DNA of 14,514 nt, from the IMG/VR virus record IMGVR_UViG_2660238462_000002. One strand, written 5' to 3'. Below are positions 1,641-10,746 of this stretch, piece after piece; within the stretch, counting starts at the first letter, position 1; each line of letters starts with the position of its first letter. The DNA is from a virus (Duplodnaviria > Heunggongvirae > Uroviricota > Caudoviricetes). Position numbers and translations under genes: made by a program. The notes under the pieces are model-generated. The model was given only the letters and a program-made list of their open reading frames with translations. It ran no database searches and had not been told where the DNA came from.

Positions 1641-4112
1641 TTAAGAATCAGCCTGACTCGGGATCAGTTTTTGCCAGATAACTGAAACGTATTTTGCCTG
1701 GTAACGGGCGTCATCAAGTGCATTATGGCGCTCACCTTCGAATGGAATAGCCGTTCTGGCATCGAAGTCTATGGCTTTCCCCAGCTCAACGATTGTGCGT
1801 ACATCGCGATCGTTGTAGTAACGCCACGGGCAGGGGATCCCCTGCCGTTCGTATGAACGGCGCAAAATCGTGTTGTCGAAGTTGGCTCCATTTCCCCAGA
1901 CCTGAACAAAAAATTCACCGGAGTTTTCGTCGATAAATTCCCACAATTGTAACAGTGCATCATCTAACGGGATTTCATCGGTCATAATGGCAGATTGCGC
2001 TTCGCGTGATTGCTTAAGCCACCATTTAATGGTGTCCCGATCAATGACTCCGCCAGCAGTTTCCAGATCGATAGTCTTACTAAATTCCGGTCCCATATCT
2101 CCGGTTTGCGGATCGAAAAATATTGCACCTATTGAGATGATCGGGGCATCAGGATTTTTTCCCATGGTTTCAAGGTCGATCATTAGATGGTCACACGTCC
2201 TGCTGGTGGATGTGATTTCTTGATGACCGTTCACCTTAATTGAGTGATCTGCCGTCTCGCCAGTTTCATTATCGCTATCGTGATGCTGATTGCCGCCAGT
2301 GTTCTCCTTGTGTGGATGTTCAGCGCCTTCCATTTCCTCCGGATCATCTTCCTGAACTTCAATCTGATACTCTTCATCGAATGTTTCCTGGTATGTTGCG
2401 TCGCCCATTACCGCGCCACAATCAGGGCAGTTGCCGCCGCCGGTCTGACCGCAGGCGGTGCAGACTTTTTCCACTTCCTGTTGCGCCACTGATTCAGGCT
2501 GTTTCGTTTCTGGCTCGTTTTGTAACGCATTTGGGCTGTTTTGTTCCGCTTTTTGGTAGTTCCGTTCCGATTCATGCTGGTTCTGGTTCACAGAATCGCG
2601 GGTCTGGATCCCCTTAACCCATTTCGGATCATTCGGGTCACTAATCCCTTCAACAAATTCACCACGTGATGCAGCAAGCAACTTATCGGCGTCAGGCTGG
2701 ATGATATTGGCTGCCTGCATAATTTTGTTTACTTCGTCAGCGGTAACTTTTATCGGCTCTGGTTGTTCTGAATCTTCAGCGGTATCTACATTTTGCGGTA
2801 AGCCCGTGTATGTGCCATTTTTTCGGGCAAAATATTCTTCTTTTGTGATTTCAGTGGCGCCAGCAGCCAGTGCCTTATCCAGACCAGAAAGTTTGTTTGC
2901 GCGACCGTATTTTTCTCCGTCCTTATCTGCGAAGAGGAAATAGAACGGCCCCTCACGCTCTACAGATGGTTCAGCTTCCGGCGCGGTTTCATTTTTTGGG
3001 ATATCAGATACCTCAGTTTCCACTGCATCAGTTTGTGTTTCTGATGACTGGAGAACATCAACAGTGCCCAGGTCTGTTTCTTCATTCTCAAACACGCCCT
3101 TTGTCGTCAGGTATTCGCAGATATATTTGTTCAGTGCTACGGGATCTTTGTGAATGTCGATCGGACGCTCACGGACAAGGCCAAAAATAGTTTGGCGGTC
3201 GTAGCGAAGGGCATCAGGCTGTTTGCGCATTGATGCCGAGATACGCTTCCAGTCTTCGCGGTCGTTGTCGATAACTTCATTTTTTGCCCAGCGATGGATG
3301 CTGCCGTCAATGTTTCCGGCATCCACATCACCAGGCCAGAGAGCGTAGGCCAGTTCGTCATCCAGTGTTTTCCATGTCTGCTTGTATTCGCGATGAATGG
3401 CAGCAATGACCGGGCTGATTTTTCCTGTTGAATTTTCAGTGTACTGTTGATTGGCTCTGGCGCGGGCGAGATCAACAACAGACGTGTATTTTCCGGTTTC
3501 CTTGCGTTCACCTTCGCGACGTTTTTTCCAGATGCGCATCTCTGCCTGAATTTCGGGCCATTTAGCACCAGGAATACATTTATGCTTAACCCACCCAATG
3601 GCGTGCAACTTAAGCTCCGGATACATGGCGTTAACTTCTGGCATTTTCATCAACGCTTCAACGATATGTCCGTCGAATGTTGCCATGTCTTCCTGCAACA
3701 ATTCCTGTGCGCTAATAACCATATCAACGGTGATGTTTTCACATGTGTCGAACTTAACCATGACAGCGTTCTGTACTTCAGGGGCCAGCTTGTCAAAAGT
3801 GACGTTCATCGGATCGGATTCAGTCTCAACCGGGACAAAAGAAGCAGACTCCTCATCCCAGCGGTTTTCCTGCATATATTCAGCATCCCATGAATCGAGG
3901 GCAGGGCGGGGTATGCCAGGTTTATCCTCGCAGACAATAAATTTATAAGCGCAGTCCTGAGCAGCCGGATAATGTTCCAGGAATTGCCAGTGAAATTTTG
4001 CTCGAGCACGGCGTTCGTCGCCAGCTTCAATGGCTGTGGCTACAGCCACAGCGCCTTCTTCCCTTGTTGCCAGTTCGTCAGGAATAGCGGCGCAAATAAA
4101 GACTTTACTCAT
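1641..4112 (-). CDS. Large prophage exonuclease-like protein (823 aa) with C-terminal DEDDh 3'-5' exonuclease domain; of the kind often annotated exodeoxyribonuclease VIII
   Basis: C-terminal motifs HLMIDLETMG (Exo I), VWGNGANFDNTIL (Exo II) and HNALDDARY (Exo III). Central CTACGQ...CPDCG zinc-ribbon motif flanked by highly acidic low-complexity sequence. Start chosen at ATG 4112 (MSKVF...) because GAGG lies 9 nt upstream; the ORF track start at 4148 has no ribosome-binding site. Confidence 0.8.
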   Translation of the reverse strand: MSKVFICAAIPDELATREEGAVAVATAIEAGDERRARAKFHWQFLEHYPAAQDCAYKFIVCEDKPGIPRPALDSWDAEYMQENRWDEESASFVPVETESDPMNVTFDKLAPEVQNAVMVKFDTCENITVDMVISAQELLQEDMATFDGHIVEALMKMPEVNAMYPELKLHAIGWVKHKCIPGAKWPEIQAEMRIWKKRREGERKETGKYTSVVDLARARANQQYTENSTGKISPVIAAIHREYKQTWKTLDDELAYALWPGDVDAGNIDGSIHRWAKNEVIDNDREDWKRISASMRKQPDALRYDRQTIFGLVRERPIDIHKDPVALNKYICEYLTTKGVFENEETDLGTVDVLQSSETQTDAVETEVSDIPKNETAPEAEPSVEREGPFYFLFADKDGEKYGRANKLSGLDKALAAGATEITKEEYFARKNGTYTGLPQNVDTAEDSEQPEPIKVTADEVNKIMQAANIIQPDADKLLAASRGEFVEGISDPNDPKWVKGIQTRDSVNQNQHESERNYQKAEQNSPNALQNEPETKQPESVAQQEVEKVCTACGQTGGGNCPDCGAVMGDATYQETFDEEYQIEVQEDDPEEMEGAEHPHKENTGGNQHHDSDNETGETADHSIKVNGHQEITSTSRTCDHLMIDLETMGKNPDAPIISIGAIFFDPQTGDMGPEFSKTIDLETAGGVIDRDTIKWWLKQSREAQSAIMTDEIPLDDALLQLWEFIDENSGEFFVQVWGNGANFDNTILRRSYERQGIPCPWRYYNDRDVRTIVELGKAIDFDARTAIPFEGERHNALDDARYQAKYVSVIWQKLIPSQADS

Positions 4113-4204
4113 TTGTTTTAACCTCATGACAGATTTAAGGATGAACAAATCCCTGCCATTGCTGGCATATAAGAATGAAACCGGATATTTATTACGGAAC
4201 TGTT

Positions 4205-4396
4205 TTAAAGACCTGCCGGGATTTCGATATTATCCTGGTGAATAACTTTATCGACCGGGTAACAGTTACCGGGAATTTTCTGTTCGGTTGCTGCAGTCAT
4301 ACACTCCTGCATTGTCCTGTGAACACTGACTGCAATATCAACTGGCTCTCCGGAAACAAGAAAAACTGTCAGAACAAGCACAAATGCTGAATTCAT
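4205..4396 (-). CDS. ydfD: Small secreted/membrane protein with N-terminal signal peptide (63 aa), YdfD-like by position
   Basis: MNSAFVLVLTVFLVSG hydrophobic N-terminus; AAGGA 8 nt upstream of ATG 4396; start overlaps the dicB-like stop. Gene symbol is by position downstream of dicB as in Qin. Confidence 0.55.
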   Translation of the reverse strand: MNSAFVLVLTVFLVSGEPVDIAVSVHRTMQECMTAATEQKIPGNCYPVDKVIHQDNIEIPAGL

Positions 4397-4581
4397 TGTG
4401 CACATCCTTTTGGCATCAGACGTAAACGAGCCAGCATTGAAACAATGCATATTTTATTTAATAGCTCCCGTTCTTGTTTTCTCTTGTTAATGGCATCTTC
4501 AGTAAATACTGGGTTACTGATAGTGACACCAATTTCAAAACAACCTTCAGACGTATTAACGTTTGGTAATAACGTTTTCAT
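4393..4581 (-). CDS. dicB: Cell division inhibitor DicB-like (62 aa)
   Basis: Translation MKTLLPNVNTSEGCFEIGVTISNPVFTEDAINKRKQERELLNKICIVSMLARLRLMPKGCAQ matches my recollection of Qin DicB. GAGGA 8 nt upstream of ATG 4581. Lies just downstream of a DicF-like sRNA. The longer ORF starting at 4686 is rejected. Confidence 0.75.
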   Translation of the reverse strand: MKTLLPNVNTSEGCFEIGVTISNPVFTEDAINKRKQERELLNKICIVSMLARLRLMPKGCAQ

Positions 4582-4755
4582 TATCGCGTCCTCAACAATG
4601 AATTTTGTGATGCAGTGCCTGGTGCCTCCAGGTGACGTTAACCAGTTAACAATTAACGCCGGATACAGAGAATCCACCCATAACACTGTTTTTGGTTTTA
4701 ACTGTTCCGCGTGCGCTCAGCCGCATTCACCACATCACAAAATTCACTTTAAAAA

Positions 4756-4808
4756 GGGCGGCAGAGCAGTCACGGAGTAAAACTGATACCGCCAAACGTC
4801 ACCAGAAA
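4756..4808 (-). ncRNA. dicF: DicF-like small regulatory RNA (about 53 nt) with intrinsic terminator hairpin and U-tract
   Basis: Minus-strand sequence TTTCTGGTGACGTTTGGCGGTATCAGTTTTACTCCGTGACTGCTCTGCCGCCC followed by TTTTT matches recalled DicF. The 3' hairpin GGGCGGCAGAGCAG/CTGCTCTGCCGCCC is followed by the U-run at plus 4751-4755. Context is between ydfC-like and dicB-like genes, as in Qin. Confidence 0.7.
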
Positions 4809-5148
4809 ATTGATAACAGAGGGCGTTGCAGCGGGGTTGTCACTTAAGCGTATGGTCAACCTGACAACCCGGTGTCCTCAACGGGGAAGAAATAACCCCG
4901 CCATACTTACCGCCGCACCATTTCGCGGGTTGCCACAACCGGAAGCGCACGGTCGACGAAAATTTAACGACAGGCTATCTATGAACCAGCTACCTCGCCG
5001 TGCGCTTTCGCGTTATGGTCTGACTTTTCAGGGAAATATCCTTTCAGTAAACTGTCAGTGCCGGATGCTCACCCGTGTCCGGCGCACGCACTCCACCTCA
5101 CCCGTGGAGAACTCCTTAATTACCAACCTTAGCTTCGTTGGTTAGCTA

Positions 5149-5367
5149 TTAACGCGGGTATGTAATCATTCTGGCAATGCTTAATGCCGCTGCTTTTTCC
5201 AGATTGGTGATATCCTGCTCCAGAGCGGACAGATTTTCAGCCTGCTTAGCCCTGGCTTCATTGGCCCATTTCAGATCCTGCGCTGCATTAATTTTCTGGC
5301 GCATCCACTCATAAAGTTCATCATCGGTATAGTCTGGCGCGATGATGACGGGTTCTCGTTTCTGCAT
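5149..5367 (-). CDS. ydfC: Small hypothetical prophage protein (72 aa), YdfC-like by size and position
   Basis: ORF with GAGGA 9 nt upstream of ATG 5367; first gene upstream of the DicF spacer in the leftward operon. Confidence 0.5.
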   Translation of the reverse strand: MQKREPVIIAPDYTDDELYEWMRQKINAAQDLKWANEARAKQAENLSALEQDITNLEKAAALSIARMITYPR

Positions 5368-5974: not shown

Positions 5975-6613
5975 TTAAATATCTTGTTGAATTTTAAAGC
6001 ATACGCCCAATATGCAAGATAGATCATCCAGCATAATTGAAGGGTAGCGAGGATTCGTGGGGACTAAAAGAATATCCGGCCCTTCTATCTCCAGTTTACG
6101 AATGACAGGTGTTGTGGTCCCTTTGGGTAAGGCAAGGACAATATTTCCTGGTTGTACGGTTCGATCGGGATCAACAAAAACTGTTGAACCATTTGGGATG
6201 GAAACTCCCCCACCAGATGTTGACATACTGTCACTCTCTAGAACAACTGCAAAGGTATTGACCGGGATTTCTCCGACAAGCTGCACACAAGAGGTTATTG
6301 AGGAATTTTTCATATAATCACTCCAGCTTGCTGCCTGCTGAAGTGATAGTAGCGGAACCGTTTTTATCGGCGGTAAAGATAGATCAAGCGAATCACCTGT
6401 ATTTAACTCTCCTCCATTAAGAAGCCAATTTTCGTTTACTTTCAATATTTTTGCCAGTGAACTTATGTAACGCGAGGACGGCGCTCCTCCACCGTTCATC
6501 CATTGACTTACGGAGCCTTTTGATGCGCCAGTGCCATTGACAAGGTCTTTGCCTTTCAGGTTTAGCGCATGCATACGTTGGGTTATGCGTTCAGATATAG
6601 TTTGCTTGCTCAT
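5975..6613 (-). CDS. CI-type prophage repressor (HTH N-terminus plus LexA/S24 peptidase-like C-terminus), 212 aa
   Basis: N-terminal helix-turn-helix region (QRMHALNLKGKDLV...GSVSQW), C-terminal S24-like region (ESDSMSTSGG ... IRKLE). Divergent from a Cro-like gene. Confidence 0.85.
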   Translation of the reverse strand: MSKQTISERITQRMHALNLKGKDLVNGTGASKGSVSQWMNGGGAPSSRYISSLAKILKVNENWLLNGGELNTGDSLDLSLPPIKTVPLLSLQQAASWSDYMKNSSITSCVQLVGEIPVNTFAVVLESDSMSTSGGGVSIPNGSTVFVDPDRTVQPGNIVLALPKGTTTPVIRKLEIEGPDILLVPTNPRYPSIMLDDLSCILGVCFKIQQDI

Positions 6614-10484: not shown

Positions 10485-10686
10485 ATACAGCGAACGCCAT
10501 TGGTTTAGTTGGATATTTACTGTGCCGGACAAAAACGGTTTGCGGGGAAATCTTAGTTAAGTAGAATGACTGCGGGTGCTTGAGGCTATCTGTCTCAGGC
10601 ATGAACACCAAAAGGCAGATAGAGAAAAGCCCCAGTTAACATTACGCGTCCTGCAAGACGCTTAACATTAATCTGAGGCCATATCT

Positions 10687-10746
10687 ATGCGACACATAGA
10701 GATTAGCCTCTTACGGACCGAAAGGTCAAGGAGAAGCAGGCTATGA
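10687..10746 (+). CDS. Short leader ORF (19 codons) ending at the hok start codon; possible mok-like coupling ORF
   Basis: ATG 10687 with GAGG 9 nt upstream; its TGA stop overlaps the hok ATG (ATGA). Canonical mok is longer and overlaps hok, so this is tentative. Confidence 0.3.
   Translation: MRHIEISLLRTERSRRSRL

Follow-up and report, generated by a model that had tools for sequence, protein, structure and literature searches.

What does a lambdoid prophage keep in more than half a kilobase of untranslated RNA in the middle of its early operon, where the small RNA (sRNA) known from this position, DicF, accounts for only about 53 nucleotides (nt)? The question is raised by a 14,514-nt stretch of DNA from a Caudoviricetes virus (IMG/VR record IMGVR_UViG_2660238462_000002; hereafter, the window), in which an untranslated gap of 567 nt on the minus strand, positions 4582-5148, separates the stop codon of ydfC from the start of dicB. 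Very probably, this spacer is an intercistronic leader that contains dicF, belongs to the early-left operon of a Qin-type prophage and is processed as in Escherichia coli K-12. The most strongly conserved piece of the spacer is not DicF but the domain that lies upstream of it, denoted here block A. The new element is block A, recognized here as an RNA domain in its own right, which covaries, is more widely spread than DicF and has no database entry.

Over the 1.2 kb that surround the spacer, the window shares 98.8% identity with the ydfB-ydfC-dicB-ydfD region of the K-12 Qin prophage and 99.9% with another E. coli chromosome, and a match to the locus was found in 4662 of the 5426 complete E. 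coli genomes. The Rfam DicF family (RF00039) matches the minus strand at 4807-4756 over its full length (model positions 1-52 of 52) with 76.7 bits against a gathering score of 48, in agreement with a previous sequence-only reading of the window that placed a DicF-like sequence at 4756-4808; the 5' end of DicF is positioned here by this alignment, and up to the U-run its 50 nt match K-12 DicF exactly. The same reading had delimited the spacer as 460 bp, at 4687-5148. The upper limit holds, but the lower one does not: because dicB starts at 4581, the gap is 567 nt long, not 460, and position 4687 is merely the first GTG of a 97-codon frame, an upstream in-frame extension of dicB. The description of the spacer as highly structured is borne out by the folding energy of the whole, which is better than that of 100 of 100 dinucleotide shuffles (z = -4.35), and that of the gap as devoid of a credible open reading frame (ORF) by the minus-strand frames, which reach at most 36 codons and none of which is conserved.

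The spacer observation in its original form was already known, given that this is one of the oldest known bacterial sRNA loci, and so was the processing of DicF at the locus, published in 1990 and 2023. In K-12, DicF originates from the polycistronic dicBp transcript, without an internal promoter, and represses ftsZ; in the 53-nt form, the 5' end depends on RNase E and an intrinsic terminator sets the 3' end, the 3' end of a 72-nt form is cut by RNase III on read-through RNA, and a stable 190-nt form has an RNase III 5' end "between 813 and 814" (bioRxiv 10.1101/2023.04.14.536235; PMC5069750; PMC9438474; all of these cite and in part repeat Faubladier 1990). The 190-nt form accumulates stably in stationary phase (bioRxiv 10.1101/2023.04.14.536235). 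The proposal of a precursor that RNase E and RNase III process, which is textbook for the K-12 locus, is thus supported for the near-identical locus in the window, where two long duplexes sit at the mapped RNase III ends; apart from the 3' boundary and length of the spacer, the first interpretation was right. Also in line with its suggestion of further structured RNA, the spacer holds both processing stems and a conserved structured domain. In the order of transcription, the leader consists of the following elements:

4933-5019, minus strand: long stem 1, a candidate RNase III substrate (inverted repeat I3 and RNAduplex).
4825-4939, minus strand: block A, a conserved structured domain of about 115 nt (covariation, RNAalifold and minimum free energy, MFE, folding).
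4808-4824, minus strand: A/U-rich linker, GCCCUCUGUUAUCAAUU, ending at the RNase E site 4808/4807 (RNase E from the literature).
4751-4807, minus strand: DicF sRNA, comprising seed, terminator hairpin and U-tract (Rfam RF00039).
4549-4758, minus strand: STnc100-like dicB leader, a long-range duplex enclosing three hairpins.

Stem 1 pairs a 5' arm, ACCAUAACGCGAAAGCGCACGGCGAGGU (5019-4992), with a 3' arm, UCGUCGACCGUGCGCUUCCGGUUGUGG (4959-4933), at -36.7 kcal/mol (RNAduplex); its core is inverted repeat I3 (13 nt at 92%). Every lambdoid lineage with the GUUGUGG arm has an equivalent stem (20-28 bp, -28 to -43 kcal/mol), with differing sequences that include two unlike versions, CAUAACGCGAAAGCGCACGG/CCGUGCGCUUCCGGUUGUG and CACAACGAUGAGAGCAU/GUGCUCUCUUCGUUGUG; stem 1 is maintained in structure and not in sequence. 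A count of 190 nt upstream from the 3' end of DicF (4755-4751) leads to 4944-4940; counting 813 nt from a +1 set a few nt after the K-12 promoter TTGACC-N17-TAATCT leads to 4942-4944, with the caveat that the source numbering is undefined in the paper. The cut that generates the 5' end of the 190-nt form would accordingly map to about 4945-4940, in the 3' arm of stem 1. The second duplex, in the dicB leader, joins a 5' arm at 4746-4728 with a 3' arm at 4617-4599 (inverted repeat I1, 19 nt at 89%), and the 3' arm ends a few nt before the dicB Shine-Dalgarno sequence (GAGGA, 4593-4589; AUG at 4581). The RNase III 3' end of 72-nt DicF (about 4736) would fall within the 5' arm of this duplex. Stem 1 and the dicB-leader duplex are both long, near-continuous duplexes inside which a published end position would fall, as expected of RNase III stems. 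Between them, the DicF terminator pairs GGCGGUA (4793-4787) with UGCCGCC (4763-4757) in a hairpin of -15.9 kcal/mol followed by U5 (4755-4751), identical to that of K-12. Altogether, the window resembles the K-12 Qin dicBF operon (Faubladier 1990; Balasubramanian 2016; Ragunathan 2023) in gene order, in the sequence of DicF and in the location of stems at the published RNase III and RNase E end positions.

These elements suggest the following course of events. The leader would be transcribed within the polycistronic RNA and would fold into a chain of modules. RNase III would cut stem 1 (5019-4933) at about 4945-4940, leaving a 5'-monophosphate 190-nt RNA that consists of block A and DicF, and RNase E would cut the A/U-rich linker at 4808/4807 to produce 53-nt DicF. 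The polymerase would either stop at the DicF terminator (4793-4751) or read through, and on the read-through RNA, RNase III would cut the 19-bp duplex (4746-4728 / 4617-4599), yielding 72-nt DicF and a trimmed dicB leader. Two partners are open to the GUUGUGG segment (4939-4933): an upstream one, with which it forms the base of stem 1, and a downstream one, with which it forms the closing stem of block A; the RNase III cut could switch it from one to the other. The RNA species and their RNase dependence come from the work of others on K-12; Rfam membership, near-identity, the duplexes and the covarying fold of block A come from the present analysis, from which we infer the assignment of cuts to duplexes and any function of block A. 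Nothing of weight stands against the overall picture, in which the cleavage-site assignment alone is indirect.

The dicB leader itself has relatives. The segment 4758-4549 aligns end-to-end with Rfam STnc100 (RF02076; 206 of 206 model positions, E = 3.7e-6 on 271 nt) at 34.4 bits, below the gathering score of 47, so that the leader is related to STnc100 and is not a member by the Rfam threshold. It has the same long-range helix and inner hairpins as the STnc100 / PasD prophage sRNAs, some of them maintained via compensatory changes; unlike STnc100, which is a free-standing sRNA, the element in the window extends across the start of dicB translation and has the character of a 5' leader. An STnc100-type match also precedes kil in an Stx phage. 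At the same position, the cdtI, F1055 and L037 types have a 20-bp duplex of unrelated sequence, and the architecture of the leader is conserved with different sequences in the cdtI, F1055 and Erwinia types. Because the layout is kept with unlike duplex sequences, the succession of stem, domain, sRNA/terminator, duplex and first gene can be considered a conserved cassette. Separately, a partial, sub-threshold STnc100 match (33.4 bits, model positions 31-147) was detected in phage P1 between upl and tciA (L002 3842-3961); tciA is annotated as a possible cell division inhibitor, and its STnc100-like leader parallels those before dicB and kil.

The leader of the lambda P_L operon offers another comparison. 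Like it, the window leader is untranslated, RNase III-processed, early-left and located ahead of the ribosome-binding site of the first downstream gene, and the second duplex of the window lies just before the dicB Shine-Dalgarno sequence, as the lambda RNase III site lies before N. The window leader differs in that it has no N gene and no boxA/boxB, and embeds an sRNA with its own terminator.

What, then, is the remainder of the 190-nt RNA? A search of phage records with BLAST shows that the segment 4939-4817 of the window travels independently of DicF. Block A shares 88% identity with its counterparts in phage cdtI, Stx2c phages, Ayreon and 2H10; the figure is 82-85% for a Salmonella phage and pPE4, and 75-80% for the leader of the P1/P7 ban operon. 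A permissive two-part pattern retrieved copies from viral contigs (among the matches listed) and from one-genome-per-species contigs, the latter in Escherichia, Shigella, Citrobacter, Serratia symbiotica, Trabulsiella, Erwinia tracheiphila and Izhakiella; most of the copies among the matches listed are E. coli prophage sequences of at least 95% identity. In other phyla, the pattern matched with incorrect spacing and without additional similarity, and these matches were treated as chance.

RNAalifold, run unaided on 27 non-redundant representatives, predicts four helices, P2, P3a, P3 and P4, to which our fuller model adds an outer closing stem and a pseudoknot:

4939-4932 / 4832-4825, minus strand: outer stem (own model).
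4928-4924 / 4917-4913, minus strand: P2 (RNAalifold).
4912-4909 / 4873-4870, minus strand: P3a (RNAalifold).
4900-4896 / 4886-4882, minus strand: P3, a variable hairpin with a CU-rich loop (RNAalifold).
4869-4862 / 4842-4835, minus strand: P4 (RNAalifold).
4906-4901 / 4855-4850, minus strand: pseudoknot of GUAUGG with CCAUAC in the P4 loop (own model).

P4 corresponds to a hairpin at 4834-4870 that the sequence-only reading had picked out and that proves to be an exact 9-bp match, GGGTTGTCA/TGACAACCC at 4834-4842 / 4862-4870 (inverted repeat I4). Across the 27 representatives, 91.7% of the alignment cells are paired in the model, compared to 30-54% in slid controls, and 13 pairs are changed on both sides, a level reached by 0-5 of 500 shuffles, depending on the measure. 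The 82 distinct copies, many of them close relatives in an alignment that was fitted to the model, give 95.8% paired cells against 31-56% in slid controls and 13 pairs (57 cells) changed on both sides, which none of 500 shuffles reaches. Compensatory changes are found in P4 (GGGUUGUCA/UGACAACCC to GGGUAACCA/UGGUUACCC in Izhakiella and to GUUGCCA/UGGCAAC in P1), in P3 (CGGGG/CCCCG to CAGGUG/CACCUG, CCCGGG/CCCGGG or CUGGG/CCCAG), in P3a (CGGU/ACCG to CGGC/GCCG in P7) and in the pseudoknot, where a U-A pair becomes C-G in P1 and U-G in F1055, with no non-pairs in the 82 sequences. The linker and the DicF seed are not conserved between lineages.

The support for block A comes from covariation, not from thermodynamics, where the support is weak: taken alone, block A has an unremarkable folding energy (z = -0.87), and, while the single-sequence MFE fold of the window copy reproduces the helices of the model, that of the P1 copy does not. 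A further reservation is that the retrieval pattern fixed most of the junction and loop letters, which by itself accounts for part of their invariance in the large set; the positions left as N are the covarying ones, and the P1, P7 and cdtI copies, which derive from BLAST, show the junction and loop invariance independently of the pattern. An alternative helix, formed by the near-repeat at 4935-4926 with the P4 5' arm at 4871-4862, is 84% pairable, with covariation not beyond shuffles, and was rejected. An Rfam scan of block A returned no family match at E<=10. A tRNA-like element was discarded as ARAGORN finds none, and mimicry of 5S rRNA, prompted by common words, was not significant, and there was no Rfam 5S match. 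Judged by comparison of sequences, block A is a real, conserved, pseudoknotted RNA domain.

The P1 copy was noticed before. The "dicF-like region" of P1 (a misc_feature in NC_005856) holds a 75% identical block A, in which P3, P4, P3a and the pseudoknot show compensatory changes and after which an intrinsic terminator comes; unlike the window, P1 has neither the RNase III stem 1 nor the DicF seed, and its different terminator is followed by tRNA genes and ban. The P1 annotators recorded the similarity to dicF in 2004 and assigned no function (NC_005856). No description of block A was found in the literature on "dicF-like", "put-like" and STnc100, and the K-12 dicBF literature does not describe the domain of about 120 nt upstream of DicF as a conserved structured element. 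As a separate observation, phage cdtI, to the right of cro (L003 40-241), has Rfam matches to C4 antisense RNA (68.4 bits) and isrK (60 bits), that is, a P1/P7-type c4-ant immunity module in a lambdoid phage that has block A in common with P1.

The surroundings of block A bear on its possible role. A repressor-controlled early promoter precedes it at a distance of 30-900 nt: P_ban in P1 is about 30 nt away, the P_L-type promoters of cdtI and Ayreon about 290 nt, and in the Qin types block A comes after ydfABC. On the other side, a terminator scan detected an intrinsic terminator 41-123 nt downstream of block A in 23 of the 27 lineages, usually with the conserved base UUUGGCGG...CCGCCC-U5 and with variable loops and upstream seeds, the P1 types being different. 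The scan found none in F1055, Shig150, Erwinia and Izhakiella; in F1055, inspection of the sequence reveals a longer hairpin ending in ...CCGACC-U5, which the 50-nt scan window missed. Beyond lie recE, xis and int in Tritos and in the window, and tRNAs and ban in P1; expression of recE, xis, int and ban needs read-through. According to its authors' annotation, Ayreon has another terminator further down the left operon. In Serratia symbiotica (L146), Trabulsiella (L163) and the Salmonella phage F1055 (L005), we also observed that the terminator hairpin 100-125 nt past block A holds a Shine-Dalgarno sequence and a start codon, e.g. GGAGGAGAAGAUAAUGUUCUACCGCGGUACCGCCCUUUUU, such that an ORF appears to start inside the terminator stem.

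No N gene came to light in the block A carriers that were examined. The complete phages with block A, cdtI, Tritos, Ayreon and 2H10, all have Q annotated and N not (4 of 4), and tblastn searches with the N proteins of an Stx phage (from L175), lambda and P22 matched 0 of the 149 block-A loci while the control matched. Neither does the leader have the features of a lambda-type nut site: there is no N homologue or N annotation, and the boxA-like word (GUGCUCUCUU; in divergent lineages GUGCUCUCUUCG, immediately 5' of block A) forms the 3' arm of stem 1, which pairs with an upstream CACAACGAUGAGAGCAU, so that the boxA/nut reading was rejected. Conversely, the Shigella phage 75/02 Stx, with N behind boxA, keeps a DicF-type terminator, an STnc100-like leader and kil, and has block A only as a 3' remnant (7 bits).

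Unpaired junction and loop letters of block A are more conserved than the sRNA seed, which argues that it binds a conserved host machine instead of serving as a passive spacer, and, because these letters are under selection in phages without common early proteins, a conserved host partner is suggested. The put sites of phage HK022 make RNA polymerase termination-resistant in cis, via the beta' zinc-binding domain. Like put, block A lies shortly after a repressor-controlled early promoter, just upstream of an intrinsic terminator-like hairpin, in lambdoid phages without N, that is, between the early promoter and the first terminators; both combine a pseudoknot-type tertiary contact with conserved unpaired nucleotides, and put works without a phage protein. 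Unlike put, which comprises about 70 nt and two stems and comes as an L/R pair, block A is about 115 nt long, has four helices and is present in one copy. On these grounds we tentatively favor, as a possibility well short of even odds, a cis-acting read-through function, in which the nascent domain would act on the elongating polymerase such that a fraction of the polymerases passes the DicF terminator and later ones. Just as tentatively, block A might then be a functional analogue of put. It would not be a homologue: the two have the words GCGCGGCGG and CCAUGCG in common, in a different order and with scores within those of shuffles. The wider proposal, which we regard as more doubtful still, is that block A could be the founding member of an undescribed phage RNA family, residing in the early operons of N-less lambdoid phages and of P1/P7 and mediating RNA-only antitermination unrelated in sequence to put, with the embedded terminator a generator of variable sRNAs from unmodified polymerases.

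Several observations weigh against this reading. Local alignment of putL and putR with block A stays within shuffles (p >= 0.08), and the block A covariance model has no match in the HK022 immunity region. Each phage has one block A copy with no partner in the rightward operon; specifically, a search of the window, the 82 loci and the complete genomes of cdtI and Tritos gave no second, putR-like copy. Transcription in K-12 seems mostly to stop at the DicF terminator, and northern blots did not show longer species (bioRxiv 10.1101/2023.04.14.536235). The evidence for the absence of N consists of three N families, annotations and one N-positive comparison. Finally, when the 190-nt RNA is folded by MFE, GCGGCGG, an invariant word of block A (4913-4919), pairs with the 3' arm of the DicF terminator, CUGCCGC (4757-4765), and GGCGGUA of block A is identical to the 5' arm of that terminator; this match might reflect an antiterminator or GC-rich words that happen to coincide, and against the antiterminator stands that the pairing is not kept in the L031 or P1 types.

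A second possibility, in our view about as likely as the first and likewise short of even odds, is that block A is an active biogenesis or chaperone-loading domain of the 190-nt DicF, positioning Hfq, RNase E or another RNA-binding protein for excision, loading and stability of the sRNA, with no effect on transcription. The borders of block A coincide with the RNase III cut on the 5' side and the RNase E cut on the 3' side, the 190-nt form is stable in stationary phase, and a study of Hfq co-immunoprecipitation reported an enriched interval upstream of dicF, because of which RNA covering block A can be taken to exist in vivo. Furthermore, a terminator-type sRNA module follows block A in at least 23 of the 27 lineages, its seed varying in a cassette-like manner. 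However, DicF-type modules also occur without an intact block A, in the Stx phage 75/02 and in the second tandem copy of pPE4, and the P1-type copies have no stem 1 and almost no seed. With respect to the modules themselves, phage vB_Apl-pPE4 (L006, approximately 1600-1800) has block A and a DicF-variant sRNA, then a tandem second sRNA copy that is preceded by the 3' end of block A alone (CCCCGCCACAAC); in Shigella phage 75/02 Stx, which encodes N, a DicF-type sRNA with another seed and loop (UCCUCUUUGGCGGACAUCGGUUUGCCGAUUGCUGAUGUCCGCCCUUUUU; L175 3990-4080) has a truncated block A upstream, and the Rfam DicF model does not match this sRNA at E<=0.01.

It is unlikely that block A is an excised, trans-acting RNA that binds or sequesters a conserved host protein at prophage induction. 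Its unpaired junction and loop letters are invariant from P1 to the Erwinia and Izhakiella prophages, it is bounded exactly by two processing sites, and the P1 arrangement of promoter, block A and terminator, with hardly any seed, resembles a stand-alone sRNA gene. Yet there is no report of a stable species of about 136 nt, no conserved protein-binding motif is recognizable (GGA motifs are absent in P1), and no partner for such an RNA is indicated.

The possibility that all spacer RNA outside DicF and the RNase stems is passive, blocking Rho loading or nucleases, with block A conserved through recent horizontal spread only, seems less likely again. The spacer RNA is heavily paired and richer in G than in C (C/G 0.79; the largest C-G excess in 78-nt windows is 0.09), the folding energy of block A is unexceptional and, as noted above, most listed copies are near-identical E. 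coli prophage sequences. What argues against passivity is that copies in other genera and in P1, at 75-88% identity, keep all the helices via compensatory changes and the loops unchanged, whereas the flanks and the sRNA seed are unalignable between these same divergent copies.

We consider it quite improbable that block A is a riboswitch-like aptamer, which would sense a ligand or signal and set termination at the DicF terminator. A multi-helix junction with a pseudoknot and conserved junction letters, followed by an intrinsic terminator, would fit such a device, as would the pairing of GCGGCGG with the terminator 3' arm in the 190-nt MFE fold; but the terminator of L031 has covaried to GGUGG/CCACC with block A left as it was, that of P1 is unrelated, the distance and the sequence between domain and terminator vary and contain the sRNA seed, and there is no Rfam riboswitch match.

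The 5' third of the spacer and the two genes that flank the leader complete the picture:

5149-5367, minus strand: ydfC, a 72-codon ORF that ends in a stop codon at 5151-5149 and is the final ORF ahead of the spacer.
5020-5142, minus strand: four local hairpins in the 5' third of the spacer (MFE fold).
4393-4581, minus strand: dicB, 62 codons, the first gene after the spacer (K-12 annotation).

The assignment of ydfC follows from its annotation in K-12 and in other genomes at 97-99.9% identity, and the dicB product matches Pfam DicB (PF05358) over residues 1-62 of 62 (E = 1.9e-40). The four hairpins are ACCAAC/GUUGGU (5142-5122), CUCCAC/GUGGAG (5109-5091), GUGC[G]CCGGA/UCCGGCAC (5087-5058) and CUGAC...GUCAG (about 5057-5020). 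Two of them had been proposed from the sequence alone and are indeed present, in amended form: the one just past the ydfC stop, described as 7 bp at 5119-5141, has 6 bp (5142-5137 / 5127-5122), and the one near 5060-5090 is an 8-bp helix with a bulge. In an alignment of the upstream regions, the four hairpins are conserved within Qin-type loci only, without covariation, and other lineages carry other hairpins there. Conservation across prophages, put forward earlier as a check on the hairpins outside DicF, is seen for the one at 4834-4870 (P4), which covaries, and not for the two small 5' ones at 5142-5122 and 5087-5058, which show no covariation and are not individually beyond chance.

That the spacer conceals a small protein-coding gene is scarcely credible: minus-strand ORFs of 22-36 codons are present, among them a 36-codon GTG frame at 4950-4840, and many Qin-type copies retain the stop and the C-terminal residues of a 23-codon frame, but insert lengths of 36-42 nt within block A, not multiples of three, disrupt any reading frame, the changes in block A compensate RNA pairing, the 23-codon TTG frame (5126-5055, minus strand) has no conserved start and is shortened to 14 codons or has a shifted stop in several lineages, and neither frame is annotated in RefSeq K-12. 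The conserved C-terminus of the 23-codon frame, ...VRRTR(V/I)(S/R)IRH*, lies over the 5087-5058 hairpin and is most likely a by-product of the conservation of that hairpin.

All genes of the window operon are on the minus strand, in the order S24-peptidase repressor (5975-6613), YdfA (DUF1391), YdfB, YdfC, spacer, DicB, YdfD (DUF1482), 835-aa exonuclease, excisionase and integrase, which is the repressor-controlled early-left operon of an apparently intact lambdoid prophage of the Qin type. Compared to K-12 Qin, the window prophage has, in place of DicA, a 212-aa repressor with a helix-turn-helix and an S24 peptidase (LexA/CI-like, cleavable), and an uninterrupted 835-aa exonuclease (1641-4148, minus strand), along with xis and int; it is probably an inducible, intact relative of Qin, of the PPompW/Tritos type. 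Outside this operon, a full-length Rfam match to sok antitoxin RNA (RF01794, 106.7 bits) at 10574-10745, plus strand, indicates that the rightward part of the prophage has a hok/sok-type toxin-antitoxin locus, comparable to hokD in Qin.

To a well-known sRNA locus, the comparative analysis adds that the whole leader is a conserved cassette, that the strongest selection acts upstream of DicF, and that the domain under this selection, which is absent from Rfam, is found in lambdoid prophages of several enterobacterial genera and in P1/P7. Block A links to the role of the stable 190-nt form of DicF and bears on how Qin-like phages without N pass intrinsic terminators to reach their recombination, excision and integration genes. 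Should block A prove to be an RNA-only antiterminator, HK022 put would be its sole predecessor as a system of this kind, and block A would be one present in most E. coli genomes.

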